A stretch of 64,000 nt of DNA from Vicinamibacteria bacterium (GTDB lineage Bacteria; Acidobacteriota; Vicinamibacteria; Marinacidobacterales; SMYC01): the NCBI GenBank assembly GCA_035457705.1, contig DATIBD010000019.1, positions 21,671 to 85,670 on the forward strand. Reading direction: 5' to 3'. The translations under genes were made by a program, and so were the position numbers. Below are positions 7,665 to 60,922 of the stretch, piece by piece. The notes beneath the pieces are model-generated. The model was not told the DNA's origin. It saw only the letters and a list, made by a program, of their open reading frames with translations, and ran no database searches. How positions within the stretch are numbered: position 1 is the first letter of the stretch; each line of letters opens with the position of its first letter.

Positions 7665-7751
7665 CCCACTTCGCCATTTGCCGGAATCTCGCCCGGGCCG
7701 CTATCATGGGCGACGTAAATCCGTTTCAATCGAGCGAGGGAGCTTCTTCTC

Positions 7752-8132: not shown

Positions 8133-8351
8133 AGCTCCGGCTCGGGTGCCCTCTTCACACAATGGCGCCAGCAATTTGCGCGGAGACAAACGACGTGCCT
8201 ATTATGCGTTCAGAGTGGGTTGAGGGTCACGCCGATACTTACTGAATGAGACTGGGACCACAAGCTACGGCCCTCTAGGGCCAGCCAACTTCATCAAAAT
8301 CCGCTTCGTGCTTCAACCCCCCAATCGTAATCCCTCGCCCACTCATCAGTC

Positions 8352-8380
8352 TTGACCGCGAGTTACCGCTTCGCTAGGAT
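8352..8380 (+). promoter_or_regulatory. candidate sigma-70 promoter of tRNA-Ala
   Basis: TTGACC, 17-nt spacer, TAGGAT. The -10 element ends 19 nt before the mature tRNA 5' end. Confidence 0.4.
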
Positions 8381-8399
8381 CAAGTCTCCGCGCACGCGT

Positions 8400-8475
8400 G
8401 GGGCTGTGGCGCAGCTGGGAGCGCGCCTGAATGGCATTCAGGAGGTCACGGGTTCGATCCCCGTCAGCTCCACCA
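8400..8475 (+). tRNA. tRNA-Ala (anticodon GGC)
   Basis: 76-nt cloverleaf folded by hand. Acceptor GGGGCTG/CAGCTCC with the G3:U70 alanine identity pair. D arm GCGC-AGCTGGGA-GCGC. Anticodon arm CCTGA-ATGGCAT-TCAGG. T arm ACGGG-TTCGATC-CCCGT. CCA is encoded. Confidence 0.92.
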
Positions 8476-8609
8476 ACCTTCGCTCGACGACGTACTGGGA
8501 AGCGCCGAGCTACGGCTAGGTAAACCAACTTCCCGAGCGAAGGCTGTCTCGCCGTAGCCCGAAGGGCGAAGGCGGGCCGGAGGTTGGATCCCACAACCGT
8601 CCTTCGGCT

Positions 8610-9842: not shown

Positions 9843-9882
9843 GACCCAGCTTGGGTGTGATACGTTCGCGAAGGAGGTCCTC

Positions 9883-11790: not shown

Positions 11791-11847
11791 CTCTCGGCCG
11801 ACGACACCGTCGGCTCCAAACGTCAGCTCGAGGCAGACGTATTTGCC

Positions 11848-12198
11848 TTACAAACCGAGGACTCTTTTCACACCCAGCCCGACGTCGGCGAGATCGCCGG
11901 ATGACAGGTGGCCAATCTTCCTCTTCAGTCGCGACTTGTGGACTGGGCCGACGGACTCGCATTTGGCGAAGGTCATCTCCTTGAGCCCGGTCCTGGCAGG
12001 TTCCCCGGAGAGTCTTACGCGGAGCGGTGCCTCTTTCGTCGTGAGCGGCACGAGCAGCACGTCGGGACGAAGGTCGTTGATCGCGTTGATACTGAGCACC
12101 AAAGCAGGGCGCGGCTTGGGGAACCCGATCGGCTCCACGAGCCAAATATCTCCTCGGCTTATTCGCTCCACATCGCCTCGTCGAACGTTCGCTCCCAT
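11848..12198 (-). CDS. PemK/MazF-family type II toxin (endoribonuclease fold)
   Basis: The pattern RGDIWLV...KPRPALVLS...LLVPLTT is typical of MazF/PemK. It is the second gene of a two-gene cassette. Confidence 0.78.
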   Translation of the reverse strand: MGANVRRGDVERISRGDIWLVEPIGFPKPRPALVLSINAINDLRPDVLLVPLTTKEAPLRVRLSGEPARTGLKEMTFAKCESVGPVHKSRLKRKIGHLSSGDLADVGLGVKRVLGL

Positions 12199-12389
12199 GA
12201 ATCCTGCTCCCGCCGCTCGTCATCGTCCTCTCGGTATCCCTCGAGTTGTTCCCGAAGGCGCTTGTCGTCAAACATCCGTTTGAACCGCGTGAGGACGCGT
12301 TCGAGCTTCTCGGACCTCGTTCTTCCCGGAAGCGAATCAAGAAAGTCCAGGAGCGGCGCCTCGACCGTTGCCGAGATTTTGCCTTTCAT
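12159..12389 (-). CDS. putative ribbon-helix-helix antitoxin of the MazF-like toxin
   Basis: ATG 12389 is preceded by GGAGGACAAGGAG. The N-terminal KISATVEAPLLDFLDSL fits a beta-strand plus helix of the RHH fold, and the tail is acidic. It overlaps the toxin ORF by up to 40 nt. The longest ORF (to 12506) is not used. Confidence 0.6.
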   Translation of the reverse strand: MKGKISATVEAPLLDFLDSLPGRTRSEKLERVLTRFKRMFDDKRLREQLEGYREDDDERREQDSWERTFDEAMWSE

Positions 12390-12647
12390 ACTCCTTGTCC
12401 TCCATAGCGTCCTACATAGGATAATATATCGCCCTTCCCGTCTAGCGAACACACAGTAAGGAAAAAGGGCGCCATCGGTCGTGTCGTCCACTCCTTTGTC
12501 CTTCAACGCGAAGACTTTTCGCGCTATATTCCGGGTGAGGGGCGCCGCAACCGAGTCGGCCGCGCCTACGCTCGCTAATCTCTCACCTGGGCTGCATCAA
12601 GATGAACCGGGTGCCCCCCCCCGAGCCACGAGCCGGAGGGTGGCTTC

Positions 12648-46333: not shown

Positions 46334-46963
46334 ATGGCTGGGCGGCGCGTCGAGCCCGTGGCCGAAGCTCTCTTCGGACCATTCCGGCTCGACCTGGCCT
46401 CCGAGGAGTTGACTCGCGATGGGCGCGCGCTCAAGCTCCAGCCACAGCCCCTCAAGGTTCTCTGCCTCCTCGCTTCGCGTCCCGGAAAGATAGTGAGCCG
46501 GGAGGAAATTCGCGCCGCCGTCTGGCGGGACGACACGTTCGTCGACTTCGAACACGGCATCAACTATTGCATCAAACAGATCCGGGACGCGCTCGGTGAC
46601 GACGCCGAGATTCAGCGCTACGTCGAAACCATCCCGCGGAAGGGCTATCGTTTCCGAGGATCGGCGGTCCATGCTCAAGACGGCGAGAAAGAGCCGGGCC
46701 GTCGCCGCAACGTCCTCGCGCTCGCCGGAGCGGCGGCGGGCGTTGCTCTCGGTGTGGCGCTCGGAGTGGTGCTTCTCCGGAACGAGGCGGGCGAGAGGCT
46801 CGACTACACGCTGAGCCTTCCGCCGCCCGATGGATGGTCGTTCGGTTGGGAGTTCGGTGGAGGTCAAGTGCCGACGCTCTCCCCGGACGGGCGCCGGCTC
46901 GCGTTCGTGGCGCTCGACGCGAAGGCAACGCTTCCCTCTGGGTGCGGGAGAGTGCGCTATTGA
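46334..46963 (+). pseudogene. truncated CadC/OmpR-type winged-helix regulator with TM segment and only the first blade of a TolB-like propeller
   Basis: Trans_reg_C-like FGPFRLDLASEELTRDGRALKLQPQPLKVLCLLASRPGKIVSREEI...VETIPRKGYRF, then a TM segment (VLALAGAAAGVALGVALGVVLL), then LSPDGRRLAFVALDAK. The expected continuation GNASLWVRE is in another frame, and the sequence then becomes AT-rich and non-coding at about 46958. Confidence 0.62.
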
Positions 46964-47025: not shown

Positions 47026-47250
47026 ATGGAAGAGCTCACCGCGCTGAGCCCGGCCGAGCGGTTTCGGATCGCGATGGATTTGTTCCAGACCGGCGTCGAT
47101 TTGATGCGGCAGAACCTCAAGAGACAGCATCCCCACGCCACCGAGGATCAGATCGAAGAACTCCTTCGCGCTTGGCTTCGACACCGGCCCGGGGCCGAGT
47201 TCGGAGACTCCGAGGGGCGGCCCGGCGCCTGGCCCCGAAAGCGGAGGTGA
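47026..47250 (+). CDS. small helical protein, putative antitoxin partner of the nucleotidyltransferase
   Basis: 74 aa. AGGAGG lies upstream. Its stop overlaps the NTase GTG (GTGA). No family recognised. Confidence 0.42.
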   Translation: MEELTALSPAERFRIAMDLFQTGVDLMRQNLKRQHPHATEDQIEELLRAWLRHRPGAEFGDSEGRPGAWPRKRR

Positions 47251-47843
47251 GTTTTCTCGAATCCGCGCTGCGCCGGCTGTGTGCCGACCTCCTCGCCGCC
47301 AGAATCAAATTCGCCCTCGTCGGTGGCCTTGCGGTTTCGGTCCGAACCGAGCCACGGTTTACCCGCGACGCGGATCTAGCCGTTGCGCTTCGGGACGACG
47401 AACAAGCCGAAGCGCTCGTCTGCGACCTGCAGCAGAAGGGTTACACGATCGTGGCGACCGTCGAGCAAGAGGCGGTCGAACGGCTGGCGACCGCGCGGCT
47501 GCAACCGCCTTTGGGTGCTCGGACGGGCGTCCTTCTCGACCTGCTATTCGCTTCGTCGGGAATCGAAGACGAGATCGTGAATGAAGCCGAGCCTCTCGAG
47601 GTCTTGCCGGAGCTCACCATTCCGGTGGCTCGCACCGGGCATCTCATCGCTCTCAAGATTCTGTCCCGAGACGATGAGACCCGCCCGCAGGATATCGTGG
47701 ACCTGAGGGCACTATCGAAGAAGGCTCCTCGAGAGGAGATCGAGCGCGCCAGGAAGGCGTTGAAACTCATCGAATCGCGGGGGTTTCACCGCGGTCGACC
47801 ACTTCTGAAGATGCTGGAGGAGTTTCGCAAGAATCGCTCGTGA
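47247..47843 (+). CDS. minimal nucleotidyltransferase (TA/AbiE-like NTase family)
   Basis: GTG 47247 is coupled to the upstream stop. NTase core ALVGGLAVSVRTEPRFTRDADLAV (GG...R.T.D.D). Intact ORF. Confidence 0.68.
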   Translation: MSFLESALRRLCADLLAARIKFALVGGLAVSVRTEPRFTRDADLAVALRDDEQAEALVCDLQQKGYTIVATVEQEAVERLATARLQPPLGARTGVLLDLLFASSGIEDEIVNEAEPLEVLPELTIPVARTGHLIALKILSRDDETRPQDIVDLRALSKKAPREEIERARKALKLIESRGFHRGRPLLKMLEEFRKNRS

Positions 47844-47855
47844 GCTTCCCAAGCC

Positions 47856-50375
47856 TCACGGGACGAAGTTCTCCACCAGCATGATGTCGGATCCGTGCGC
47901 GTCCTGCTGCATGTAGTAAATCCACTCTCCGTCCGCGGTGATCGTAAACAGGTTGGGGTTTTTGTCCTCACCGAGCTCCACCAGAGTGGCTACTTCACCC
48001 GTCTCCCGGTCGAGCGCATCGAAGGAATGGTTGCCGCTTCCGAACACGATGAGGTTCTGCCACCGGGCCCACAAGACCCATCGATCGAGGACGAGTGTCG
48101 GATTCGGGTCGCCCTCCCGCAGGGCCAAGATCTTGTCGTCCCTCTCGAAAAGAATCTCGTCGGGGCTCGAAAAACCGAAGAATTGGGCGTTGGGAGAACC
48201 AGCTCCGCGGCTCCGCTTTCCGCGGGAACTCGTCGAACCTGGCCTTCGCCGTCCCGGCGCGTGAAAAAGAAGATGTGGCGGCCGACCGCGGACCATCGGG
48301 GACCGACGTTGTCGAACCGATCCTCGGTCAGTCGACGGGGGAAGCCGCCGGATGCGGCGACGACGAAGATGTCGGAGAACCCTTCGGTGCCCGATTGAAA
48401 CGCGATCCGCGAACCGTCCGGCGACCACCTTGGCATCGCGGCTCCTCCGACGTTCGTGACCTGGCGCGGTGACGATCCGTCGGCGTCGGCGATCCAGATC
48501 TGCCACCCCGAGCGGCCCGACATAAACGCGAGCTGCTTCCCGTCGGGGGAGACGTCCGGGGCCATGTCATGCCACGTCGATCCCACGACGAGCTCGGGCG
48601 GAAGCCGATTCTTTGCGGCGGGCCCCGAGACGCGCCAGAGGTTCCAGTTGCCCAGCTGCGCTCGTAGACGAGCCGGTTGGCTCCCCGAGCCATCGACGGC
48701 GCTCCCGTGCGCTCTCCAGGAAGGTGAGTCTTCGCTTCGCCGCCGCTCACCGGGTCCACCGGGATGGATTCGAGGTGGGTCGAGTCCATGCTCTGTCCGA
48801 TGGAGAAGATGACGTGACGACCGTCGGGGGAGAAATCCGCTCCGCAAATGAGCCCCGGTTTCGACACCAGGGTGCGCTCCTCGCCCTTCGCCAGGTCGTA
48901 CGAGAGAAGGTCTCCCGGTCGCTCGATCTGGGGAGCGGGATGGGTGCGCTGGAACAAGATCGTCCGTCCGGGGAGAACTTGGGGAAGCGGTCGTGCAGGA
49001 ACTCGCGGCTCGGCGACGTCAACCGCCGAACCTGGCCCGTTTCTCTCGAGAGGAGGAAGATCGCGCTCGGCTCATCGAGGGTCTCCCCGTTCACCATCGC
49101 GAGCTCTTTCCCGTCGGGTGAGTACGAGAGGCCATGGCCCCCCGTCCGCCTGGCCCAGCCCCCAACCGCGGGCACTTCGAGAACGTCGTGCTCGGGTCTC
49201 CCTTCGCGATGCCGGAGGAACGCGACGCGAGCTCCGTCGGGAGACCACGCCGGGCTGACGTCGTGTCCGCCGTTCGTGAGCTGTACCGCTTCTCCTTCGC
49301 CAACGAGCTGCACGAAGATGTGGCCGTCTTTCACGAAAGCGAGTTGCTTCCCGTCGGGAGAAAGAGCTGGCTCTCGCTCGAAGTCCGGGTCGCTCGTCAT
49401 GGGCACGAACCGCAGGGGCGGGAGGTCGGGGGAACGCATCGACAGGACGATCGCGACGCCCGCAACACCGACGGCGGCAGCTGTCGCGAGCGGCCACCAC
49501 CGCCTTTTCCTTCGGGCGGTTCGGATATCGCTCGCGGTCAAGGCGTCGCCCGATTCGAGATCTTCGACGAGCTCGGTGAGCGCCACTTTCAGATCCGACG
49601 CGTTCTGGAAGCGCCGGTCGGGATCCTTCCGGAGTGCCCGGTGGACGATCTTGTCGAAGTCGACCGGAAGCGACGGGTCGATGGCGGTGAGCCGCTCCGG
49701 CTTGCCACCCACGATCTCGGCGAGAACGGCGATGGACGTGTCGCCCGAGAACGCTCTCCGGCGCGCGGCCATCTCGTAGAGCACGGTTCCGAACGAGAAG
49801 ATATCGCTCCGGGCGTCGATGGTCGTTCCCTGCGCCTGCTCGGGGGACATGTAGGGAGCGGTGCCGGCGATGCGGCCCTCTTTGGTCTGGGACTGGACGC
49901 GATCGAGCGTCGTCAGGGCCGAGTCGACGACGGCGTCCAGGAGCTTTGCCAGTCCGAAGTCGAGGATCTTCACGAGCCCGTCGGCGTTCACCATGATGTT
50001 CTCGGGCTTCAGATCGCGGTGCACGATGCCGTGACGGTGCGCTCGGGACAATCCATCCGCCACCTGAGTGACGATGGCGAGGACTTCCTTCAAGCCGAGC
50101 CGGCGGGAGTCGAGGAGCTCGCGCAGGCTCTTCCCTTCGACGAGCTGCATCACGAGTTAGAGCTGACCGTCCACGGTCTCGCCGATCTCGTGGATGGTGA
50201 CGATGTTCGGATGGTCGAGTCCCGATGCCGCGCGGGCTTCCCGCTCGAATCGCTTCCGCCGCTCCGGATCGGAAGCGCCGTGGGCGGAGAGAACCTTGAT
50301 GGCTACGTCCCGCTGGAGCCTCGAGTCGCGGGCTCGATAGACGACTCCCATGCCGCCCGAGCCGAGCTCCGCCAC
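47856..50375 (-). pseudogene. Ser/Thr kinase - TM - TolB-like beta-propeller gene inactivated by one in-frame TAA and at least three frameshifts
   Basis: The kinase reads ...ETVDGQL-TAA-LVMQLVEGKSL... (TAA at 50157-50159), with HRDLKPENIM and DFGLAK intact. The propeller (repeated SPDG[KR]xxAF blades) has to be assembled from four different ORF-track frames: 48747-50153, 48328-48957, 47990-48847 and 47856-48506. Confidence 0.8.
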
Positions 50376-50483
50376 GATCTCGTAGGATCCCAGACGGTCG
50401 GGGGTGACATCTTCCGACGATTCACTATAGGGCGAGCGTTTTCTTCACGTCAACCAACGACAGCGACGAGGTAGACTGCGAGC

Positions 50484-50969
50484 ATGCTCAGCTCAATCAT
50501 TCTCTCTTTCCTGGTTTCGTCCCCGCTCGTCTACGACGCTCCGAAGGAGTGGACGCCTTCTCCGTCGACTTCGTCGATGCGGCTCGCCCAATGGAAAATG
50601 GGGACGAGCTCCGAGGTCGTCATCTTCTACTTCGGCCCGGGTCAGGGCGGGGGAGTGGAAGCCAACCTCGAGCGGTGGTACGGGCAGTTTGTCCAGCCCG
50701 ACGGTAGCGCCACGCGAGAGCACGCTCAGGTGCGCAAGATGAAGGTCGGTAACCTCGACGTCACACGCGCCGACGTTTCGGGAACGTACGTGGCGCCCGT
50801 TCGTCCCGGTGCGAGCGATCGGCACGACGAGAAGGACTACCGCATGATCGCCGCGGTGGTGGAAGGACCGTCGGGGCCATGGTTCATCCGCCTTCTCGGG
50901 CCGCAGGCGGAGGTGTCCGCGGCCGAAGCGTCCTTCGACGCGTTTCTCACGAGCCTTCGGATTTCGTGA
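50484..50969 (+). CDS. hypothetical protein (161 aa)
   Basis: Intact ORF with a short hydrophobic N-terminus. No motif recognised. Confidence 0.45.
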   Translation: MLSSIILSFLVSSPLVYDAPKEWTPSPSTSSMRLAQWKMGTSSEVVIFYFGPGQGGGVEANLERWYGQFVQPDGSATREHAQVRKMKVGNLDVTRADVSGTYVAPVRPGASDRHDEKDYRMIAAVVEGPSGPWFIRLLGPQAEVSAAEASFDAFLTSLRIS

Positions 50970-51087: not shown

Positions 51088-51499
51088 ATGCCAGGTGCTG
51101 TAAGTGGGTGTCCGGGTCGATTCGCTCGCTCAAACTCATCGCCGGGATGAGAGTCCCTAGACCTCTGTAATTGAGAGATTCGAAGTATATGAGTCAAGTT
51201 TTGGAGGTGGGGGGAAGAGTCTGGCGTTTTGAATGAGTTTGTCACCACGCGGAGAGCGCCGCCGCAGGGGCACAAAAGGGGTCGCGTTCGAGGACCCTAC
51301 GAATCAGATTTGCCCACCGTCGGCGCAGAGCCTGTTTTCGGACTGGGCTCTCGGTTTGAGGCGAAGCTTCGCTGGCAGGGTGATGAAAAACTCAGGCCCA
51401 CCCTGCGCGAGTGGAGCGTTCGACTTCGCCAAGGCTTCAGCCATGCGCTTCGCTTCGGCGAGACACGACTATCACGGGTCCCGCCACGGCATTGAGCAT

Positions 51500-53443
51500 C
51501 TAGAGAGCAGAGCCCCCGAGGGCCTCGAGCGCTGAGCGCAGGCCCCCGGCGTCGAGGTATCTCTTGGCGGGCTCTTTTTCCAGGCAGCGAAGAATCACGG
51601 CCGAGAGCTCGGGTGAAACACCCGGGTCGAAGTCACGGGGATCCGGCGGAGGCGTACTTCGGTGCATCTCCAGGACTTCCTCAATTGTGGGGGCTTCGAA
51701 GGGACGTCTCCCGGTTGCCATCTCGAACAGGACGACCCCCAAGGCGTAAAGATCCGACCGTCGGTCGAGCGGCGAGAGACTGGCCTGCTCCGGAGAGGCG
51801 TAGTTCGGAGTTCCAAGGAAGACGCCGGTCCGCGTCGTGCCCGGCTCGCCCAGAAGCCGGGCGACACCGAAGTCCGTGAGATAGGGCTCTCCCTCTCCGT
51901 TCATCAGGATGTTCTGCGGCTTGATATCCCGATGCAGGACCTTGTGGGCATGGGCGGCTTCGAGAGCGGCGGCGAGTTTGGCTCCGATCGCGGCGCACCG
52001 GCTCGGAGACAGCGGCGACTCGGCGCTGATCAGCGTCCCGAGGGTCTGGCCGTCCACCCATTGCATCGTCAAGTACTTCTTACCTCCGAACTCCCCCAGG
52101 TGATACATCCTGAGGACGTTGGGGTGACCGATATCCCGGGACAGAATGATTTCCTTGCGGAAGCGCTCCAGGATGGCTTCATTGGACGCGAACTCCGAGC
52201 GAAGCATTTTGATGGCGATCTTGACTTGCAGCATCTGGTCGTAGGCCTTGTAGACGATTCCGGCGGCGCCCGCGCCCACCTGCTGAAGGAGCTGATACCG
52301 TCCGTCGATGACGCCCAGACCCAGATCGTGTCCGATGGTCGTTCCTTCCGTCGAGATCCCTTTCCGGAGCGAAGCGGGGCTCGCGCTCGTCGGCGATTGC
52401 TGCATGCTGGCGAAGTCCTTGATCCACCGGCGGAAGAAATGATTGACCAAGACGAAACGGCGTTCTTCGTTCCGACGGATGAATCCGAGCTGCTCGAGAC
52501 GGTGCAAGCTGTCGCGCAGCGCTCCGTCGCTGATGCTGAGGCTGTCTTGAATCGAGTGGCTCACCGCGGCGCTCTGCTCGGCGATGATCCGAACGATGTC
52601 TCGTTCGCTCTGGGAAAGCATCTCGAAATCCACGGAGAAGAAGTAACTGACCATACGATCGTTGGCTACTTCCTCGAGAGCATCGCCGACATCTTCCAGC
52701 TCGAGGTAACGCTTGCAAACGAGCTGAATGAGATAGGGGTGGTTGTCACAATGCTCACGGATGGTGGTGACGGTCCGATCATCGAACCGCGGGCGAGACG
52801 CGCCGTCAAGGTTCTGCTGGCGAATCAACGACGTGGCCTCATCGTCGGAGAGAGCCCGGATGTAGAGAGGCGGCGTGAATCCATGGAGGAAAGGTGACGT
52901 GTCACCCTTTTGCTCGGCCAGTGCCCAGAGCCGAATCGTAGATGCCAAAACCGACCGGATTCCCTCCCGCGATTGCATTTCGCGCCTGAGCTTCCGCAGG
53001 AGGGACGGTTCTTTCTCGTTCAAACGGATGAGCTCCTCCACCTCGTCGCAGAGCAAGAGAAGCCGCAAATTCCTCACCCTCAACTGACGACGGAGGTGCC
53101 CCAAGGACACGAAGAGATCGTCGGCTTGGATTTTCTCCAGGGACAGGCCGAGCCGCTCGAGACGCTCCTCGGCATCGAGAAGGGCGTCGCCGAAATCGGC
53201 ATGGAGCTCGTCTGGATCTTCGGCCCCCTGGAGATCCCAGAATATCGGAAAGTAACCATTCTCGGGAGACGAAGCCGTGATCTGCTCGACCTGTTTGAGC
53301 AGAGAAGTCTTTCCGATTCTCCTCGTCCCCAAAAGCCACAACCAGTTGCGAGGACCATCCAGAATCTCGGTGATCTCGTTGGCCCGTCCGTAGAATTTTT
53401 CGCCTCGCACCCATTGGCCGACGACGTAAGGGATGGCTTTCAC
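51500..53443 (-). CDS. STAND-like P-loop ATPase + winged helix + C-terminal Ser/Thr protein kinase
   Basis: GTG start overlapping the upstream stop (GTGA). N-terminal IPYVVGQWVRGEKFYGR, Walker A GTRRIGKTS, Walker B LLLLCDEVEEL, NHPYLIQLVC. wHTH-like LHRLEQLGFIRR. Kinase motifs GAGAAGIVY, IAIKML, HRDIKPQNIL, DFGVAR, SPEQ. Confidence 0.85.
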   Translation of the reverse strand: MKAIPYVVGQWVRGEKFYGRANEITEILDGPRNWLWLLGTRRIGKTSLLKQVEQITASSPENGYFPIFWDLQGAEDPDELHADFGDALLDAEERLERLGLSLEKIQADDLFVSLGHLRRQLRVRNLRLLLLCDEVEELIRLNEKEPSLLRKLRREMQSREGIRSVLASTIRLWALAEQKGDTSPFLHGFTPPLYIRALSDDEATSLIRQQNLDGASRPRFDDRTVTTIREHCDNHPYLIQLVCKRYLELEDVGDALEEVANDRMVSYFFSVDFEMLSQSERDIVRIIAEQSAAVSHSIQDSLSISDGALRDSLHRLEQLGFIRRNEERRFVLVNHFFRRWIKDFASMQQSPTSASPASLRKGISTEGTTIGHDLGLGVIDGRYQLLQQVGAGAAGIVYKAYDQMLQVKIAIKMLRSEFASNEAILERFRKEIILSRDIGHPNVLRMYHLGEFGGKKYLTMQWVDGQTLGTLISAESPLSPSRCAAIGAKLAAALEAAHAHKVLHRDIKPQNILMNGEGEPYLTDFGVARLLGEPGTTRTGVFLGTPNYASPEQASLSPLDRRSDLYALGVVLFEMATGRRPFEAPTIEEVLEMHRSTPPPDPRDFDPGVSPELSAVILRCLEKEPAKRYLDAGGLRSALEALGGSAL

Positions 53444-55878
53444 CCGATTCGAGCCTCCGGCGAAAGACCGATGGCATCGACATCCGCGAGCGTGATGGTC
53501 CGCCGGTTCTCCTCATGAGCGCGATTCACGAGGGCGACGCAGAGTTTCTGGATCAGGTAGGGTTTGCACTCGGTGACGGAGATGATCCGGTCCACACAAC
53601 CGTCCTCGAGCTTGAATATGCCGCGGATGGGACGCTCGATGAGCTCTTCGGCGTCCTCGCGCCGGAACGGCTTGACTTCGATCTCCTCGAAGAAGTTGTA
53701 CCAAGGACTTCCTTCTCTTTCCCACTGCTTCTTGATCTCGACGCCGGAGACGACGGAGACCAGACTCTCGGCAAAGCTCTTCATGAAGAGGCTTCTCAAT
53801 TTCTGGTTGATCTTTGGATCGTAGTCGTTGAGCTCGTCGACCTCGTCGATCAGCAGCACCAGCTTCACGCGCTTCGAGCTCTTCTCATGGAGCCTCTTGA
53901 GAATTCGATGAATGTCACGGACGAAGTCGCGGTAGGTGTAGCCTGCTCCGTCCTCCCCGGTGGTCGGCTCGAGTCCATCGAGCATTGGAGCGAGGTCGTG
54001 AAAGATATCGTCTGCCAGCGTCCGGAAGAATCGATTTTCGGGAGTACCCTGAAGATCGACATAGACGGGGTAGAAGTCGTAAACGGGATCGTCGAGGCGC
54101 TCGAGCCTCTTCTTTAGCTGATGCTGGATCGAGGTCTTGCCGATGCGTCTCTCACCATAGAGTAGGAGGCTGTTGTTGTGGATCGTTTGCAGAATCCGAT
54201 CGATCAGTCGAGCGCGGCCGAAGAAGAGGCTCTCGTCCAGCACCGGCGCGCCGGCCACATAGGGATTGAAGCGGCGCTTGATGAGCCGCTCCCGCTTTTG
54301 GGCCCGCCGACCATAGAGGAGCCCACCGAAGCCCAGCAGGATTGCACCGACGGTCAGGTAGAACCAGGCTGTCCGGTAGAAGGGCGGTTCGTAGACGACG
54401 ATGTACTCGCTGCTCGAGCTCAGGCTCTCCGCGTCCGTCGCCACCAACCGGAAGGTCGACAGGCCGGGTGGCAGCATCTCGTCGAGGGTAAACTCGGTGA
54501 TGTAGTAGTCCCCTAGCGGTTGGCTATTGCTGCGCCCGCGAATCTCCCGGTTCTCCCGGTCATAGAAGACGACGTCTACGGGGGAGTCGTCGAAGATGAT
54601 GCCGCTCAGACGAAAGTCGGACGTTACGATTTGCTGGACCCGCGATCCATCATCGAGCTCTCGGCGAAAATCGGCGAATCGGATGGCGGGAGGAATGTTG
54701 CCTCCCGTTCCGGTCCCCAGTAGCCTCCGGTTGATTTCCCGATAGGCTCTCGCCACCTTCTCGAGCGCGGACGCGTTGCCGGCGTCCAGTGCGAGCACCC
54801 GATTCGCGGCGGAGAGGGCACTCTCGAATCGACTCGCCCCGATATCCGATTCCGCTTCGGCCAGCATCCGATCGAGCGACGCGCGTCTGGATTTCTCCCC
54901 CTCGGTCCTGGCGCGAGCTTCGAGAAGGCGGTCCTGGAGCCGAGCCGCTTGCTCGTTGGCGGGATCCAGGGCAATCACGGTCTGTAGTCGCGTCAGGGCT
55001 GCCTCGATGTCCCCTCGAGCTTCCAACTGCCCCACTTCCTTCAACCCATCGGCGACGAGATCGCTTCGCCGTCGAGCGTCCTTCCTTCCTTCGATGTCAC
55101 GAAGGATTCTCGCCTGCGCGTCCTCCAGCAGGGACTGAACTTCGGGATCCGACGAGAGCACCGCGGCCTGCTTCAAAACGCTCGAGGCCTCGCTGTATCG
55201 GCCGGAGTCGAGGAGCGCACGACCGTCGTCGACCAAACGGGCCGCCCTTTCCTGCCGTTCTTGTTCGGCCTGCTGGCGGCCGATTTTGTCGAGCAGTCTC
55301 TCCCTTGCGGCCAAGGCGTCCGCGTCCTCGGGTGCCACCGACAGTCCCCGGCTCAGAGCCGTCATCGCCTCATCGAGCCGGTCTCCGGCCTCGAGCCTCG
55401 ACGCCTCCTCGAGGCTCGTTCTCACGATTTGTCGAACGCGTTGCTGCTCCTGGGCGAGGCGATCGTCGCGTCCTTCCTCCGCCCGAACGCGGAAGTCTCG
55501 TAGCTCGGCCAGCCCGCCTTGCGATTGAGTAACGGCCCCGAGTCTTTCTTCTGTCTCGAACGCCTGGAGGGCGGCGTCGAACTGCCCGAGTTGGTAGTAG
55601 GCTATCCCGAGCTTGAGGTAAGGAAAATACGAGATGACTTTCATCCCGTAGCTCCTCACTCGGGCTCCTGAATCGCCTTTCCTCTCGATCGCCTGGTTGA
55701 TCTGAACGACCGCTTCCTCCCAGTTTTGGGCCTCGAGCGCCCTTTCGGCCTTCTCATAATGCTCGTACCAGGGGTCGGTCCAGGCCAGCCGCGTCGAGGC
55801 GGTCAGTAAGAATAAGAGGGCAAGGACATGGTGACGACGCAGACGAGCGAACCGGCGCCTTCGTCCTCGCGGGCTCAT
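53440..55878 (-). CDS. signal peptide + extracytoplasmic TPR/coiled-coil region + TM helix + cytoplasmic STAND-like P-loop ATPase
   Basis: ATGA overlap with the upstream gene. N-terminal signal (VLALLFLLTASTRLA). TPR-like repeats and a long Ala/Arg/Glu-rich helical region. TM helix AWFYLTVGAILLGFGGLLYG. ATPase paralogous to the downstream gene: NPYVAGAPVLDESLFFGR, GERRIGKTS, VLLIDEVDEL, CKPYLIQKLC. Confidence 0.8.
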   Translation of the reverse strand: MSPRGRRRRFARLRRHHVLALLFLLTASTRLAWTDPWYEHYEKAERALEAQNWEEAVVQINQAIERKGDSGARVRSYGMKVISYFPYLKLGIAYYQLGQFDAALQAFETEERLGAVTQSQGGLAELRDFRVRAEEGRDDRLAQEQQRVRQIVRTSLEEASRLEAGDRLDEAMTALSRGLSVAPEDADALAARERLLDKIGRQQAEQERQERAARLVDDGRALLDSGRYSEASSVLKQAAVLSSDPEVQSLLEDAQARILRDIEGRKDARRRSDLVADGLKEVGQLEARGDIEAALTRLQTVIALDPANEQAARLQDRLLEARARTEGEKSRRASLDRMLAEAESDIGASRFESALSAANRVLALDAGNASALEKVARAYREINRRLLGTGTGGNIPPAIRFADFRRELDDGSRVQQIVTSDFRLSGIIFDDSPVDVVFYDRENREIRGRSNSQPLGDYYITEFTLDEMLPPGLSTFRLVATDAESLSSSSEYIVVYEPPFYRTAWFYLTVGAILLGFGGLLYGRRAQKRERLIKRRFNPYVAGAPVLDESLFFGRARLIDRILQTIHNNSLLLYGERRIGKTSIQHQLKKRLERLDDPVYDFYPVYVDLQGTPENRFFRTLADDIFHDLAPMLDGLEPTTGEDGAGYTYRDFVRDIHRILKRLHEKSSKRVKLVLLIDEVDELNDYDPKINQKLRSLFMKSFAESLVSVVSGVEIKKQWEREGSPWYNFFEEIEVKPFRREDAEELIERPIRGIFKLEDGCVDRIISVTECKPYLIQKLCVALVNRAHEENRRTITLADVDAIGLSPEARIG

Positions 55879-57536
55879 TTCGAGGGTACGCTCACGACGA
55901 AGGTCGATCCTTTGCCGAGCTGGCTGTGCACGCGAATCTCACCGCCCTGCTTCTGAACGAACTGACGCGCGGTGAAGAGACTCCAGTCTCCCGTCGAGAT
56001 GCGTCCATCGGCGATCTGGAAAACGGGATTGAACAGGCGGGTCACCTGGTCGGGCGTCATTCCGCCTCCATTGTCCTCGATCCGGATTTCGATCCGATCT
56101 CCCATGGCCTCGGTCGTGATGACGATCGTTCCGTAAGCGTCGTTCTGTCGGCAGGCCGCGATCGCACACCGGAGCAAACCCGTGAGGCTCGAGCTCAACG
56201 ATTGTCGGTGACATCGAATCGACGGCAGCGGCGCCGAGTGCAACTCGATACCGATGGACGGCTCTCGGGCCAGCGCCACTATGTCGGACAATAGCTCGTT
56301 CAGATCGATCGCTTGCACCTCGGCTCGATCCAGATTCGTGAAACGCTGGATGCGCCCGATCACTTCGTCCATCCGCTCCAGGGCCGCGTCAAACGACTTC
56401 CGCAAATCGGCCTGCACCGCTTCCAGGCGACCCCGCTCTTCGGGTGTTGCCGAGCCTCTCCGGGCGGCGGCGCGCACGAGAGTATCGACCGTGCTCTTCA
56501 GGGTCCCGAGGGGAGTGTTGAGTTCGTGGCTGAGGGCGGCCGCGAGACGGCCGAGACTCTCCACGTTCTCGGCGATCAACATCCGGCGTTGCATCTCCCA
56601 TCGCTCCCGCTCGATCCGGATCCCCGCGACGTTGGCCATCGCGGTCAACAGGATCAGATCGTCGCTGGTGAACGTTGGCCCCTGGTCGACGGAGTCCAGA
56701 TACATCAGTCCGATGACACGTTCTTCCGTCTGCAACGGGACGGCGATCAGGGAGTGCACACCTTGCTCGATGATGGTCTGGCTTCTCTTTACCAGCTGGT
56801 CGTCGAGGGCGTCCGTTACCAAAAGGGACGTCTTCTCTTTCAAAACCTTCTCCCTGACGCGGGAGCTGATCTGAAGCTCGGAGCCCCGGGAGGCTTGCAC
56901 CACCAACCGGTCTCCCTCATCTAGAGTCAGAAGGACTCCTCGTTCGGCGCCGACCGCCTCGAGCGAGAGATCGAGGATGATGCGGAAGAGCTCTTGAAGC
57001 GGTCGACGCACCACGAGCTCGCGACCGGCACGCACGAACGCCCAGAGCGCGCCGACATGAGGACCTCGCGCCACGTCCTCGACGCGGCTCTGGGAACCTC
57101 CCGCCGACAGGACCTCTTCGAGAGACGTGCTCTTGGTACTCGAGTGCGCCTCGGTATCCGGCGAATCGAACCTAAGGTTGTCACCCTGGCTCTGCCGCGA
57201 GAGAGCTAACGTCACACAGCTCGCGGTGATGCGATCGCCGGGCTCGAGAATCTGCCTCCTCGTCACCAGTCCCCCGTTGACGAACGTGCCGTTCTTGCTG
57301 GCCAGGTTCTGGACGAACCATTGGTCTCCCTCTCTATCGACAATCAGATGCTGTCGGGACAATCCTTCGTCCTCGGGAAAAGAAAGGGTGTTGGTTGCCG
57401 ACCTGCCGAGAGAGATCCGACGGCGTTCGAGACGCAGGGTGCTCGTATGGCCGGACGGCGCTGTAACGAGAAGCACGAGACCCGGCTCGCTCCGATCGCC
57501 GGCATCGGCCTTGGAGCTTGCGGATTTGCGAGCCAT
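55875..57536 (-). CDS. FHA - GAF - histidine kinase (HisKA + HATPase_c)
   Basis: ATG 57536 has GAGG upstream, and the longer ORF to 57743 is unlikely. FHA: ISLGRSATNTLSFPEDEGLSRQHLIV...NGTFVNG. GAF-like middle. H-box LGRLAAALSHELNTPLGTL. G boxes EDNGGGM and GKGSTF. No receiver gene in the operon. Confidence 0.85.
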   Translation of the reverse strand: MARKSASSKADAGDRSEPGLVLLVTAPSGHTSTLRLERRRISLGRSATNTLSFPEDEGLSRQHLIVDREGDQWFVQNLASKNGTFVNGGLVTRRQILEPGDRITASCVTLALSRQSQGDNLRFDSPDTEAHSSTKSTSLEEVLSAGGSQSRVEDVARGPHVGALWAFVRAGRELVVRRPLQELFRIILDLSLEAVGAERGVLLTLDEGDRLVVQASRGSELQISSRVREKVLKEKTSLLVTDALDDQLVKRSQTIIEQGVHSLIAVPLQTEERVIGLMYLDSVDQGPTFTSDDLILLTAMANVAGIRIERERWEMQRRMLIAENVESLGRLAAALSHELNTPLGTLKSTVDTLVRAAARRGSATPEERGRLEAVQADLRKSFDAALERMDEVIGRIQRFTNLDRAEVQAIDLNELLSDIVALAREPSIGIELHSAPLPSIRCHRQSLSSSLTGLLRCAIAACRQNDAYGTIVITTEAMGDRIEIRIEDNGGGMTPDQVTRLFNPVFQIADGRISTGDWSLFTARQFVQKQGGEIRVHSQLGKGSTFVVSVPSK

Positions 57537-57760
57537 CAACGCCTCGGTGTCGAGAAAACCTTCCCTATTTCCTCGTTCGCGAGCAGAGACTCCACGCCAC
57601 GACGGAGCTCCAAGGAGAAGGCGAAACGAGTCATTATAAGTTTTGGTTCCGCCCGCTGACAACTTAGCCGCCGAGCTAGACCGTACCAGCGCATATAATG
57701 ACGCGGACCCGTGACCGGAGTCGCTCTTGGAAGTCACCTCCATCCCTGACCGGAGGAGAA

Positions 57761-59119
57761 ATGAGCCCGCGTCCCGCGCGATCCTGTTACATTCTTTTCG
57801 CAGCTCTTCTCGCTGCCCGCACCCTCTGCGGTCAGGCGGAAGTCCCGACGATTTTCCAGTTCAGCCTTTCCAATCCTGGGGCGCGAAGCCTCGGGCTCGG
57901 TGGCGCTTTCGTGGCGCTCGCGGACGATGCGACCGCTGCCTTTGCCAATCCGGCGGGGCTGGTCCAGCTCACGAGGCCGGAGGTTTCCGTTGAAGGACGG
58001 TTATGGAGCTACTCCACACCCTTCACCGAAGCGGGACGGATCTCGGGTCAGCCCACGGGCATTCTCCTCGACAATTCGCCCACGACCCGAACCGGCGTTT
58101 CCTCCGAGCTCGTCACCGGGCTGTCTTTCATCTCCTTCACCTATCCGCAAGAAGATTGGTCCGTGGCCGCTTATCGACATGAATTCGCGAATTTCGAGGC
58201 CGCTGCCGAGACCCAGGGGTTCTTTGCGGCCCCCCCTCTCCCAGACGACGACATCGTGGCGCTCTCCCTCCAGGTTGATGACACGTTGCGGCTTCCTGAT
58301 CTCCGTCGGTTTACCGATCTCGAGATCGTCACCTATGGATTCTCCGGCGCCTTTCGGCCCACGGACTCCTTCAGTGTGGGCGCCGGGGTCTCCTATTTCG
58401 ATGGAGCGCTCCGCAGCACCGTTGATGTCTTCGCTGCGGTCGATGAAACTCTGCCTCAGGGTCCTTTCGGCGAGAACGCGTACCACGAGGCGGCGCGGGC
58501 TTTCTCCGCCGACAGCACCGTCGACGACTCGGACTGGGGCTTCACCGGCGGATTCTTGTGGAACGTTTCCGACCGGTGGAACGTGGGTGTCTCCTACCGC
58601 GAAGGTCCACGGTTTGACTTGCACAACCTGGAGCTTTCCGGGCCGGCTCTCGAGCCATTCGTTCCGGAAGGCACGGTGACCCTTTCGAGCCCAACGCGGA
58701 TCGGCTTTCCCGACGTTTTCAGTCTAGGGGTCGTCTACCAGTCCGAGGGGGGAGCCACTACCGTGAGCTTCGAATGGGACCGCGTACAACATTCCAATCT
58801 CTTCGAGGCGGAGCCCGAATCACTCGAATTGGGCCTGCGGTTGGATGACGTCGATGAGCTTCACCTGGGCTTCGAGTACGTTTTCATCAATGCGACGCCA
58901 ACGGTCGCGCTTCGTTTGGGTGCCTGGACGGATCCCGACCACCGCATCCGATACGTTGGGGATGACCCCGTCCTTCGGGCTCTCTTCCCGGCGGGAGACG
59001 ATGAAGCCCACTTCGCCGTCGGCTTCGGCATGGCCTTCAGCAAGTTCCAGATCGACGTGGGCGTCGACCTCTCGGATTTGGTGAAAACGACTTCGTTCTC
59101 GGCGATTTACAGTTTCTAG
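57761..59119 (+). CDS. outer-membrane FadL/OmpP1-type transporter
   Basis: GGAGGAG RBS and ATG 57761. Signal peptide ILFAALLAARTLCGQA. Hallmark N-terminal GARSLGLGGAFVALADDATAAFANPAGL. C-terminal aromatic residue (IYSF). Confidence 0.75.
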   Translation: MSPRPARSCYILFAALLAARTLCGQAEVPTIFQFSLSNPGARSLGLGGAFVALADDATAAFANPAGLVQLTRPEVSVEGRLWSYSTPFTEAGRISGQPTGILLDNSPTTRTGVSSELVTGLSFISFTYPQEDWSVAAYRHEFANFEAAAETQGFFAAPPLPDDDIVALSLQVDDTLRLPDLRRFTDLEIVTYGFSGAFRPTDSFSVGAGVSYFDGALRSTVDVFAAVDETLPQGPFGENAYHEAARAFSADSTVDDSDWGFTGGFLWNVSDRWNVGVSYREGPRFDLHNLELSGPALEPFVPEGTVTLSSPTRIGFPDVFSLGVVYQSEGGATTVSFEWDRVQHSNLFEAEPESLELGLRLDDVDELHLGFEYVFINATPTVALRLGAWTDPDHRIRYVGDDPVLRALFPAGDDEAHFAVGFGMAFSKFQIDVGVDLSDLVKTTSFSAIYSF

Positions 59120-59140: not shown

Positions 59141-59464
59141 TCAGGTCTTCCACTCATCGTCTTCGGCGACGAGAGTCGACTTGAGCCGGGTCACCGTCAG
59201 AAGCTCCACGATCCGCTTGCTGGGATTGACGACGCGAAGCTTGCCGTCGATGCGGGACACGCTCGTATAGCAGCGCACGATCTCTCCGAGTCCCGCGCTG
59301 TCGACGTAGGGAACGTCGGCGAGGTTCAAGCCAATTCGCTTGTGCCCGGCCTGCACGAGGCTATCGACTTTCTCACGCAGGATGTCGTCGCCGTCGCCGA
59401 TCATTAGCTTTCCCGAGAGGTCGAGCATCACGACGTCGCCTTCGTGCCTTTCTTCGATTTTCAT
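59141..59464 (-). CDS. STAS-domain protein (anti-sigma-factor antagonist, SpoIIAA-like)
   Basis: 107 aa. VMLDLSGKL...LNLADVPYVDSAGLGEIV, with a conserved Ser in DSAGLG. Confidence 0.85.
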   Translation of the reverse strand: MKIEERHEGDVVMLDLSGKLMIGDGDDILREKVDSLVQAGHKRIGLNLADVPYVDSAGLGEIVRCYTSVSRIDGKLRVVNPSKRIVELLTVTRLKSTLVAEDDEWKT

Positions 59465-59629: not shown

Positions 59630-60235
59630 TCAGGTGAGCTCGCGTATCGTTCGCCCCAGGTCCTTTCGCGGAACGATGTTGTGTTTTATCCAGAAGCCGG
59701 GGTAGAGCGTCACGAAGCCCGTGGGGTCCACGTCGAGCTCGGTGAGGAAACCCGACGTGCTCTCGTAGCGATAGCGAGAGGAATCGATGCGGTAGTAGCT
59801 TTGCTCCAGCGGCACCAGGTCGAAACTCGGGAACCGAAGCCAAGCGGCTCGAACCGCAGATCCCTGTCCGATCGGGAGGTCCAGCCGGCGAATGGGCAGG
59901 AGGTTGGTCGATGGACTGAAGTTCAAGTCGAGATCGAGGGCGCCTTCGACCTCCGGACAGTGGGACTCTCCGAGCCACCAGCGCCCGCGCTCGGCGCGGA
60001 TCTCGAGAGCCACGAGCTCACTCCCGAGCCAGCCCGCAACCTTCCCGCGACGAGTTCTCCAGTGGGAGTCGCACTGGATGGCGTAGTCGAGACGACAGGG
60101 CTTCCCGTCGTAATCGAAGACCGCCGTCCCCTCGAGACACCAATCCTTGCCGCGGGAGTCGAGCCGGGCACATTCATGACCGGCTCGATCCAGCCTCTGC
60201 CAGAGTATGGTGTTCGCGGGCACGCGCTTCCTCAA
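59630..60235 (-). CDS. putative glycolipid-binding domain protein (DUF1089-like)
   Basis: The pattern W.RLD..G.E...L......L.G......G.P..L.Y.I.CD..W.TR plus ALDLDLNFSPSTNLLPIRRL matches my recollection of that family. Confidence 0.55.
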   Translation of the reverse strand: MRKRVPANTILWQRLDRAGHECARLDSRGKDWCLEGTAVFDYDGKPCRLDYAIQCDSHWRTRRGKVAGWLGSELVALEIRAERGRWWLGESHCPEVEGALDLDLNFSPSTNLLPIRRLDLPIGQGSAVRAAWLRFPSFDLVPLEQSYYRIDSSRYRYESTSGFLTELDVDPTGFVTLYPGFWIKHNIVPRKDLGRTIRELT

Positions 60236-60322: not shown

Positions 60323-60922
60323 TCAGAACCGGAGGCCGATGCTGAACGTCAGCTTCAGGTTTCCACCCCAGAAGCTGTCTTCGGTGACCGCCTCACGATC
60401 CCGGTTGATGGCCGGTGCCGGGTAGCGGAGAAGCAAATCAGAGACGTCCACTCGCACGAGACTCCGATCCGTTGGATAGAGCTCGATTCCGCCTCCGAGA
60501 TCGAGAGCGAGAACCGTTCGGCCCCCGGCGAGGAGGCAGGACAGCGGTGGAGGATAAATGAGAATGCAAGCGAACGGCTGCCCGGCTCCGGCGAATCGCA
60601 CGAAGCCCGGCCGAGCCTTACCGAAGACCGAAAGCCAGTCGAAACGCGGTCCGACCTTGATCCCAAAGAGTCCTTCGATACGTGAGCTCGTGATGGTGAC
60701 GCGGTCGGGAATGTCTTGGGGATAGAAGCTCAGCTCGCCTTCGACCCCCAGAAGCGGAGTCGCCTGATAGCCGATTCGGCCCCCGATGCCCAGGTCCGTG
60801 GCGTCGAGCTCGTGTTGGAACGTCGTGCCCAGGAGTGCGCTCAACTCGAGGCCTCGTTCCTGAGCACGGGCGTTCATGACTGTGGAAAGAAAAATGAGCG
60901 TGGCGATGGTGACGTTTCTCAA
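60323..60922 (-). CDS. small outer-membrane beta-barrel protein
   Basis: Signal peptide (IATLIFLSTVMNARAQE). Alternating hydrophobic beta pattern. C-terminal SIGLRF. Confidence 0.62.
   Translation of the reverse strand: MRNVTIATLIFLSTVMNARAQERGLELSALLGTTFQHELDATDLGIGGRIGYQATPLLGVEGELSFYPQDIPDRVTITSSRIEGLFGIKVGPRFDWLSVFGKARPGFVRFAGAGQPFACILIYPPPLSCLLAGGRTVLALDLGGGIELYPTDRSLVRVDVSDLLLRYPAPAINRDREAVTEDSFWGGNLKLTFSIGLRF

Follow-up and report, generated by a model that had tools for sequence, protein, structure and literature searches.

Gene organisation of the locus

We analysed a 64,000-nt stretch of DNA from a Vicinamibacteria bacterium (the window; positions are window-based unless another locus is named), whose minus strand carries an operon of three open reading frames (ORFs), at 55875-57743 (gene 1), 53440-55878 (gene 2) and 51500-53443 (gene 3). 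Gene 2 encodes a predicted membrane sensor that ends in a P-loop NTPase, gene 3 a cytoplasmic protein in which a paralogous NTPase is joined to a Ser/Thr kinase, and gene 1 a protein with FHA, GAF, HisKA and HATPase_c domains. A survey of relatives showed that the conserved unit is gene 2 together with a gene 3-like protein and not the three-gene set, and that a gene for a FadL/TodX-type channel usually lies close by. Below, the families of genes 2 and 3 are called g2 and g3, and gene 1 is g1 in the same scheme; L-numbers denote homologous loci and P-numbers proteins.

The genes were found to be coupled by 4-nt overlaps, as the initial annotation of this DNA had described: the stop codon of gene 1 and the ATG start of gene 2 share ATGA at 55875-55878, while the stop codon of gene 2 and the GTG start of gene 3 share GTGA at 53440-53443. 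The start of gene 1 itself is most likely the ATG at 57536, which would give a protein of 553 aa; its orthologue in L079 (89% identity) is annotated at 552 aa. The genes and their predicted parts are listed below, together with the channel gene.

57761-59119, plus strand: FadL/TodX-family (Toluene_X) outer-membrane channel gene (PF03349), divergent from gene 1
55875-57536, minus strand: gene 1, predicted cytoplasmic FHA-GAF-HisKA-HATPase_c protein, 553 aa (Pfam)
about 57225-57413, minus strand: FHA domain of gene 1
56613-56999, minus strand: GAF domain of gene 1
56328-56555, minus strand: HisKA domain of gene 1
55881-56171, minus strand: HATPase_c domain of gene 1
53440-55878, minus strand: gene 2, predicted membrane sensor, 812 aa (Pfam, AlphaFold2 (AF2) model, topology prediction)
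about 55780-55878, minus strand: signal-like helix of gene 2
54718-55773, minus strand: predicted periplasmic TPR-like superhelix of gene 2
54391-54687, minus strand: Ig-like beta-sandwich of gene 2
54313-54372, minus strand: transmembrane (TM) helix of gene 2
53467-54237, minus strand: cytoplasmic P-loop NTPase of gene 2
51500-53443, minus strand: gene 3, predicted cytoplasmic NTPase-winged helix-Hanks kinase protein (Pfam, AF2 model)
52709-53443, minus strand: NTPase core and lid of gene 3
52409-52708, minus strand: winged helix of gene 3
51557-52297, minus strand: Hanks-type Ser/Thr kinase of gene 3

Gene 2 combines a periplasmic sensor with a cytoplasmic NTPase

Pfam recognised TPRs in the gene 2 product, followed at residues 548-804 by matches to nSTAND1 (37.8 bits, cutoff 27.1) and ATPase_2 (35.6 bits, cutoff 33.2). 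Topology prediction gave one strong TM helix (residues 503-522), with a net charge of -1 before it and +7 after it, and the N-terminus forms an Arg-rich, signal-like helix. In the AF2 model (mean confidence, pLDDT, 73) a TPR-like helical region (36-387) is followed by an Ig-like beta-sandwich (398-496), the TM helix (504-534) and the NTPase (556-810). The NTPase carries a Walker A motif, GERRIGKTS, and a Walker B motif, LLIDEVDEL; the protein ends after the NTPase lid and has no winged helix. Pfam, topology and model agree with one another and with the proposal in the initial annotation of a signal peptide, an extracytoplasmic TPR region, one TM helix and a C-terminal P-loop ATPase. A PDB sequence search with the NTPase domain returned no relative.

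The g2 family comprised 542 matches, each of about 800 aa and conserved from end to end, the ectodomain included. Mean column identity in the family alignment (A2) was 67%, with both Walker motifs invariant. Between two phyla the sensor and the NTPases are 56-91% identical, and many residues of the ectodomain are invariant; such strong conservation of the ectodomain is as expected for a fixed physiological signal.

Gene 3 joins a related NTPase to a complete Hanks-type kinase

In the gene 3 product Pfam detected a weak ATPase_2/nSTAND1 match at residues 15-166, below both cutoffs (nSTAND1 20.3 vs 27.1 bits, ATPase_2 25.6 vs 33.2 bits), a MarR-like winged helix-turn-helix (wHTH) at 276-325 and a Pkinase domain at 383-629 (E 7e-48) that spans profile positions 1-252 of 263. 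The kinase core is complete (GAGAAGIVY, IAIK, HRDIKPQN, DFG, SPE), as in Hanks-type kinases, and no TM helix was predicted. The NTPase motifs, GTRRIGKTS (Walker A) and LLCDEVEEL (Walker B), were invariant in the g3 family alignment (A1). An AF2 model of residues 1-370 (pLDDT 72) showed the core, a lid and the winged helix, and its fold matches, which extend over the full module, ranked the PF01637 archaeal ATPases first (2qen, E 2.7e-10; 2fna), then Orc1/Cdc6 and then STAND proteins (Apaf-1, MalT, plant nucleotide-binding leucine-rich repeat proteins (NLRs)). Judged from this model, the winged helix belongs to the NTPase module as its WH domain and does not form a DNA-binding output of its own; the initial annotation was thus right about the complete kinase and needs amendment in treating the winged helix as a domain apart. 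A PDB sequence search with the A1 profile returned kinases only, the profile containing kinase columns.

We compared the two NTPases directly. BLASTP aligned them at E 2e-11 (29% identity over 256 aa), and hhalign of the two family alignments gave a probability of 99.4% (E 2.5e-21 over 220 columns), so the paralogy that had been proposed from shared motifs holds at the profile level and the two do not fall into unrelated families. They are not mutual nearest relatives, since many g3-like families score far higher against g3 than g2 does. Profile search and fold matches support placing both in the ATPase_2/nSTAND1 (AAA+/STAND-like) group, in line with their earlier description as STAND-like. 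These architectures and the paralogy are direct observations.

The conserved unit is an NTPase pair with exchangeable outputs

To sample relatives, one genome per species was taken, which gave 72 loci, and 6 metagenome loci were added; the window proteins were mapped onto them by tblastn. The hosts of the 72 loci were all metagenome-assembled genomes (MAGs), from Acidobacteriota (Thermoanaerobaculia, Polarisedimenticolia, Sulfomarinibacteraceae, Holophagales, Marinacidobacterales) or from Woeseiaceae. The survey contained 81 g3-like units: 46 with a kinase, 28 with Trans_reg_C (an OmpR/SARP wHTH), 4 fused to an extracytoplasmic function (ECF) sigma factor and 3 cut by a contig end. A g2-type gene lay within 5 kb of nearly all of them (62/66), directly upstream on the same strand in 36/40 kinase forms and in all four sigma fusions, and a FadL/TodX-type gene lay within 5 kb of 38/44 units. 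An FHA domain, by comparison, was present in just 2/31 fully flanked kinase-type units. The conserved unit is therefore g2 plus a g3-like protein, not the triad. Near-universal pairing of g2 with g3 fits a heteromeric NTPase relay.

The g3 module is widespread. Word-indexed searching found >1,100 homologues of 60-85% identity whose additional domains vary (C-terminal Pkinase, N-terminal Trans_reg_C, AraC), and an exhaustive search against 50%-identity representatives returned 197 clusters with E below 1e-30 and 1,947 with E below 1e-3. Among 97 representatives the fused domains were Pkinase (20), Trans_reg_C (12), ECF sigma (3-4), FHA (3) and SpoIIE (1), with TIR_2 and SIR2_2 in two each, these last in distant members only. 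Fusion architectures of the family include FHA-NTPase, NTPase-FHA-Ser/Thr kinase and one triple fusion, NTPase-Ser/Thr kinase-ECF. This swapping of outputs and the synteny counts above were observed directly.

Kinase forms often have a sigma factor as neighbour. An ECF gene directly follows the kinase gene in L018, L027, L034, L054, L063 and L077, and the ECF sigma factors of relatives are of the PF07638 type; in the window no ECF sigma gene was found, neither beside the kinase nor elsewhere. FadL genes are frequently part of the cassette operon itself, for instance in the order FadL-FadL-g2-g3-ECF in L018, L027, L034, L063 and L077. In L047, L069 and L074 one g2 is followed by a g3-ECF-sigma fusion, and a second g3-kinase gene, with no g2 of its own, converges on it across a FadL gene; this layout suggests that a single sensor may serve two outputs.

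Two clades depart from the common arrangement. In Sulfomarinibacteraceae a short soluble g2-like NTPase with neither ectodomain nor TM helix lies directly upstream of Trans_reg_C-g3 (L032 18276-19052, where Walker B has DG instead of DE; similar genes occur in L038, L041, L043, L048, L053, L055 and L062). As this soluble NTPase is still paired with wHTH-g3, the NTPase pair is the constant element. In Woeseiaceae a Toastrack-type gene (DUF5666-DUF2807) stands between divergent g2 and wHTH-g3 genes, and DUF4097 (Toastrack) proteins are also present in L001-L003; Toastrack proteins often neighbour the pair, and the Toastrack domain has been tied to membrane-proximal signalling complexes (PMC11237479).

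The FadL gene of the window had no place in the initial account of the locus. Its product matches PF03349 (E 9e-14, 51.2 bits vs cutoff 29.7), carries a signal peptide and ends in an aromatic residue (...AIYSF). The longest ORF begins at 57698 and the signal peptide at 57761, the likely start. A PDB sequence search with the protein returned no relative. Orthologues of 40-65% identity adjoin g2/g3 in most loci, and L079 has the same arrangement as the window; the window gene belongs to the conserved cassette.

Gene 1 is a lineage-specific addition

Pfam placed FHA (residues 42-104), GAF (180-308), HisKA (328-403) and HATPase_c (456-552, beginning at profile position 15) in the gene 1 product, the layout given in the initial annotation, and no TM helix was predicted. 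The phosphothreonine (pThr)-binding motifs of the FHA domain (GR, SxxH, NG) are legible in the sequence, and an NCBIfam FhaB-like model matched it at E 9.5e-14, under its cutoff. The H-box, SHELNTPLG, contains the phospho-acceptor His, and H337, E338, N340 and P342 are invariant across 22 homologues.

The full triad was found in four assemblies of one narrow clade only: the window, L079, L080 and L061. L079, a Vicinamibacteria MAG, is about 90% identical to the window; in L080 gene 1 is 72% identical. In L061 (a Candidatus Marinacidobacterales chromosome, 6668-12489) the triad is spread over many short tblastn segments in different frames, probably through assembly indel errors rather than decay. 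An assembly chimaera was considered as the origin of the triad and ruled out, because four independent assemblies carry it. The initial annotation had treated the three genes as a unit; in the neighbourhood survey this synteny failed for gene 1, whose lability is a direct observation, and gene 1 is a recent, lineage-specific addition to the cassette.

FHA domains nonetheless recur with this NTPase family. An operon in L002/L003 encodes, in order, an ECF sigma factor, a 195-aa FHA protein, g2 and a g3-kinase, and its FHA domain shares 55% identity with the one in gene 1. Because of this recurrence, there and in the fusions described above, a pThr link from the gene 3 kinase to the gene 1 FHA domain is plausible, although it would be optional for the system.

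Proposed mechanism and alternatives

On balance, and with only slightly more confidence than doubt, we read the locus as an example of a conserved envelope signalling pair that is linked to FadL, has mainly transcriptional outputs and occurs in sediment Acidobacteriota and Woeseiaceae. The FadL neighbour and the exchangeable outputs point to a transcription-directed envelope pathway of this kind. A periplasmic or outer-membrane signal, tied to FadL channels or to hydrophobic substrates, would shift the nucleotide-dependent association between the NTPase modules of g2 and g3, and this shift would switch the output on through induced proximity. In the end the pathway would chiefly affect transcription, probably that of the FadL genes next to it. 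Forms of g3 with a wHTH, sigma or AraC output would act directly; the kinase forms would act indirectly, by phosphorylating the adjacent PF07638 ECF sigma factor or an FHA protein. For ECF groups associated with kinases, control through phosphorylation of sigma by a Ser/Thr kinase is established (PMC7826278). In the lineage of the window, the FHA domain of gene 1 would most likely dock on pThr made by the gene 3 kinase, which would link the cassette to a branch of His-kinase or phosphatase type. What we infer here is the nature of the signal, that the two NTPases associate, what the kinase phosphorylates and which genes are targeted.

Several findings weigh against this reading or against the branch through gene 1. 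Every cassette host is an uncultured MAG. Foldseek with the full gene 2 model returned only generic matches to TPR proteins (OGT, P58IPK) and Ig domains, which give no hint of a ligand. In the window we found no promoter motif common to the output and FadL genes, and the motifs of relatives were clade-specific. In the catalytic and ATP-binding (CA) domain of gene 1 (55881-56171), the Asn of the N-box is replaced by Cys (LLRCAIAAC) at a position that is variable in close homologues, and the G2 box reads TGDWSLF, not GxGLGL, which leaves the G1 box (DNGGG) alone of the three; the N- and G2-box comparison was made against reference kinase sequences. More distant homologues of gene 1 (P0428 and P0433 from Bryobacteraceae, and P0415) retain the N-box Asn. 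Because its CA domain lacks this Asn and the G2 box, histidine-kinase activity of the gene 1 product is uncertain, and it may be a phosphatase or scaffold and not an autokinase. No receiver domain was detected up to about 45 kb from the operon, which extends the earlier remark that gene 1 has no receiver partner in it; receiver-like sequences occur in the window only at 17-289 and 3910-4233, >50 kb from gene 1, and no cognate response regulator is encoded alongside. Finally, the gene 1 orthologues P0394 and P0392 (71% identity) are flanked by an amino-acid permease gene and a MacB/FtsX gene; P0394 shares a 7-Mb contig with the g2-g3 locus L001, at a distance of 3.6 Mb. Since gene 1 is located elsewhere in these sister genomes, the link between it and gene 3 may be opportunistic.

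The alternative that survives best concerns the direction of control. The membrane NTPase of g2 might hold the g3-type protein inactive through NTPase-NTPase contact and release it on signal, much as an anti-sigma factor holds sigma or MalK holds MalT; we regard this as unlikely, yet as a serious competitor. Membrane release would be a natural switch for the outputs directed at DNA or RNA polymerase that are fused to g3 (ECF sigma, wHTH, AraC), the g3 module has the inhibitory MalT-MalK complex (8bob) as one of its fold matches, and the winged helix with which STAND proteins close their oligomers is absent from g2. The sequence data are, however, the same for activation and for sequestration, and the short soluble g2-like NTPases of Sulfomarinibacteraceae cannot hold anything at the membrane.

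A second possibility is that gene 1 is functionally unrelated to the pair: a rearrangement would have put an ordinary FHA-GAF sensor kinase before the cassette, and the overlap would be incidental. Orthologues of gene 1 do stand in another context in close relatives. In L079 the triad lies close to MacB/FtsX and glyoxalase genes, which are neighbours of gene 1 at its other locations; this suggests that a local rearrangement joined cassette and gene 1. FHA-GAF is, moreover, a common and portable input module in Acidobacteriota, where FHA-GAF-SpoIIE phosphatases form many clusters, and Ser/Thr kinases are numerous in these genomes, the window holding at least three besides gene 3. Against this, the 4-nt overlap is kept in relatives whose gene 1 is 89% (L079) or 72% (L080) identical, the same FHA type has been recruited independently upstream of g2 in L002/L003, and FHA domains are fused into the NTPase family. 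We consider the functional independence of gene 1 rather improbable.

The initial annotation had pictured a linear chain, in which the TPR sensor drives an ATPase hetero-oligomer, this the Ser/Thr kinase and the kinase the FHA-histidine kinase; a further possibility is that this chain is the essential and conserved system, an obligate triad. The 4-nt overlaps that join all three genes, the four assemblies with the triad, the FHA gene upstream of g2 in another lineage and the NTPase-FHA-Ser/Thr kinase fusions all accord with it. As a conserved system, however, the chain is largely refuted by the synteny survey: FHA domains are rare around kinase-type units, an ECF sigma factor instead accompanies most kinase forms, the 71% orthologues of gene 1 lie far from g2-g3, and in L081 a 61% orthologue has no g2 or g3 within 8 kb. 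We judge it distinctly improbable.

Least probable is that the locus encodes a conflict or anti-phage defence system of STAND type, Avs-like or nSTAND1-like, within a variable genomic island, a role the initial annotation had left open and for which little support emerged. It could draw on the nSTAND1 match of g2 over its Pfam cutoff, on the TIR_2 and SIR2_2 fusions of distant representatives, on toxin-antitoxin genes in the vicinity (AbiEii in the window; PIN/RHH, PemK and AbiEi in L001 and L079) and on the decayed kinase gene that adjoins the locus. PADLOC, however, gave generic kinase-domain matches for g3 and near-threshold noise for g2 (Avs1b, E 0.0039 over 70 aa only), and in NCBIfam nothing exceeded its cutoff (DS8_antiphage, 20 bits vs 790). 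The sensor and NTPases, with their high identity over two phyla, are unlike diversifying immune sensors; the outputs in the close clade (kinase, wHTH, sigma, AraC) are those of signalling, not toxic effectors; the sensor is periplasmic, whereas phage proteins appear in the cytoplasm; and the FadL linkage is constant. A scan of 2.9 million viral contigs found no relatives of the cassette. The locus thus shows neither a match to a defence-system model nor a toxic effector with a diversifying cytoplasmic sensor, and the absence of database matches and viral copies together with the conserved sensor and NTPases makes a defence role unlikely. The PADLOC matches of g3 to PD-T4-6, mad6, MkoA and PglW were rejected as signs of system membership, as they cover the kinase domain only.

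Relation to known systems

No named system or description of the cassette was found in PADLOC, NCBIfam or the searched literature, which bears out the first impression that the pathway had not been described. In its presumed working the cassette is most like STAND/AAA+ regulators and, in its logic, paired sensor/helper NLRs; in gene content it is most like cell-surface signalling systems. It is a member of none of these.

STAND proteins combine a P-loop core, a lid and winged helix, and a repeat sensor and effector on one polypeptide (definition of Leipe et al. 2004). Both g2 and g3 have the P-loop core with intact Walker A and B motifs. A lid and winged helix follow the core in the g3 model, while g2 ends after the lid, and the best fold matches of g3 are PF01637 and Orc/Cdc6, not classical STAND clades. 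No repeat sensor is present on the NTPase-effector polypeptide: g3 lacks repeats, and the TPRs are N-terminal on g2, beyond the TM helix. The observation that the layout is inverted relative to classical STAND proteins, with the sensor repeats on a separate membrane protein, is therefore upheld.

With the STAND/AAA+ regulators (MalT; AfsR-type large SARPs; 2qen and 2fna) the cassette has the P-loop core and lid in common, in g3 the winged helix too, as well as TPRs as sensor repeats, and the nucleotide-switch logic of these regulators is plausible here too. The Trans_reg_C-NTPase relatives resemble AfsR-type SARP-NTPases, and some are named SARP by JGI. The cassette differs in that its sensor repeats sit on a separate, membrane-anchored paralogue that faces the periplasm, in that kinase and sigma outputs are C-terminal, in the missing winged helix of g2 and in that g3 falls under all NTPase Pfam cutoffs.

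Paired sensor/helper NLRs (NAIP-NLRC4; plant pairs) consist of two paralogous NOD-type NTPases, one for sensing and one for output, encoded by adjacent genes. The g2-g3 pair is alike in its paralogous NTPases, which would divide sensor and output labour, and in its gene adjacency; it differs in that one partner is transmembrane with an extracytoplasmic sensor, in that the outputs are kinases or transcription factors and not death effectors, and in that the hetero-oligomer is hypothetical.

FecA-FecR-FecI and kinase-controlled ECF sigma factors (ECF43-type: V. parahaemolyticus VP0055; X. citri PknS-EcfK) share gene content with the cassette, namely an outer-membrane channel, an inner-membrane periplasmic sensor and an ECF sigma factor that are encoded together, and in relatives a kinase followed by a PF07638 sigma. 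The differences are a FadL/TodX partner in place of a TonB-dependent transducer, the lack of an anti-sigma domain, the relay through an NTPase pair and, for the window, the missing ECF sigma gene. Gene 1, for its part, has a canonical FHA domain like mycobacterial FhaA/FhaB and EmbR, and shares its FHA-GAF input module with the FHA-GAF-SpoIIE (RsbU-like) phosphatases of Acidobacteriota; it differs from all of these in its HisKA/HATPase output with an atypical CA domain and in having no response regulator nearby.

Two-component systems, anti-sigma/ECF pairs, chemoreceptors and receptor-type Hanks kinases are the usual explanations for transmembrane signalling in bacteria. The cassette suggests a further solution, an AAA+/STAND-like NTPase pair split into a membrane sensor half and a half with interchangeable outputs. 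It is abundant (hundreds of sequence clusters) and occurs in Thermoanaerobaculia, Sulfomarinibacteraceae, Vicinamibacteria-like Acidobacteriota and Woeseiaceae, hosts that are recovered mainly as sediment MAGs. That it represents a distinct class of trans-envelope signalling, in which a FadL channel-coupled TPR/Ig sensor works through a paralogous-NTPase relay on plug-in outputs in a 'paired-NLR-like', non-immune manner that would serve envelope or lipid sensing, is a tentative proposal that may hold but that we would not yet favour; if true, it would be a bacterial, non-immune counterpart of sensor/helper NLR pairs. Characterised FadL-type channels import hydrophobic compounds, and the tie to FadL means that the cassette may govern the acquisition of lipids or hydrocarbons by its hosts. 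Natural domain swaps, a kinase with a sigma factor in some loci and a direct sigma fusion in others, make the predicted pathway testable. Compared with the initial annotation the finding is broader, a widespread FadL-linked NTPase pair, yet less specific, the FHA-histidine-kinase being a local add-on.

Expression signals and intergenic motifs

Candidate expression signals of the operon are consensus matches only, and two motif sets were seen in relatives, one of which has defined positions:

57633-57662, minus strand: promoter-like TTGTCA-18-TATAAT, 11/12 consensus match, about 100 nt upstream of the gene 1 start
51397-51415, minus strand: terminator-like hairpin with T run, downstream of gene 3, consensus match only
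L018 818-851, L027 4837-4870, L034 4803-4836, L063 4858-4891, L077 4338-4371: candidate two-block motif (alignment A8, five Thermoanaerobaculia loci only)

Shuffled sequences yielded 0.9 sites of at least 9/12 in the region of the promoter-like match. The site is also kept in L079, which is weak evidence because the whole intergenic region there is 92% identical. Terminator-like sites in the region numbered 9, against 6.1 expected.

In Woeseiaceae we found strongly conserved intergenic blocks in the divergent promoter region between the Toastrack gene and wHTH-g3 (alignment A6; L015, L016, L020-L022, L025, L028, L036, L056, L058, L076, L004, L005). The first invariant block reads ATTGAAC...GCTTGATGAC...TGAT.TC...CTGAT and contains TGAT-type repeats spaced by about 11-12 nt, as is typical of OmpR-family sites; the second reads CTAgGTACAT..CCGGGTTG..GCGTGTTAGCT. 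Both are candidate binding sites of the Trans_reg_C output. The five-locus motif, located upstream of the FadL-FadL-g2-g3(kinase)-ECF operon, reads GGGTNTTGNG-N15-TGNCANNGT and follows the palindrome CCACCCCGCGGGGGTGG; it is a candidate promoter, possibly ECF-dependent. The only match to these clade motifs in the window (48046-48079, 2 mismatches) was discarded, being at chance level and outside the operon.

Neighbouring genes

Downstream of gene 3 and convergent with it, a plus-strand ORF of 161 aa (50484-50969) is hydrophobic at its N-terminus and matches no Pfam family. Next to it, on the minus strand at 47856-50474, a gene for a Ser/Thr kinase-TM-PD40 (TolB-like propeller) protein is split over at least three reading frames: the N-terminus of the kinase (50154-50390) lies outside the main ORF (48747-50153), and the PD40 repeats are divided between 47990-48847 and 47856-48506. 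This region, the 'gene-decay island' of the initial annotation, is either a pseudogene or a product of MAG assembly errors. Beyond it on the plus strand are a Trans_reg_C-domain ORF (46334-46963) and an ORF for an AbiEii-type toxin-like nucleotidyltransferase (47172-47843). In L001 and L079 the cassette is flanked by toxin-antitoxin genes, namely PIN/RHH, PemK and AbiEi.

On the other side, beyond the FadL gene, three minus-strand genes follow:

59141-59464, minus strand: STAS anti-sigma-antagonist-like protein
59630-60235, minus strand: putative glycolipid-binding protein
60323-60922, minus strand: small outer-membrane protein (beta-barrel)

The same three genes, along with FadL, also flank the triad in L079. 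A partner-switching link between gene 1 and the STAS protein is conceivable by analogy, because FHA-GAF-SpoIIE, the sister architecture of gene 1, is RsbU-like.

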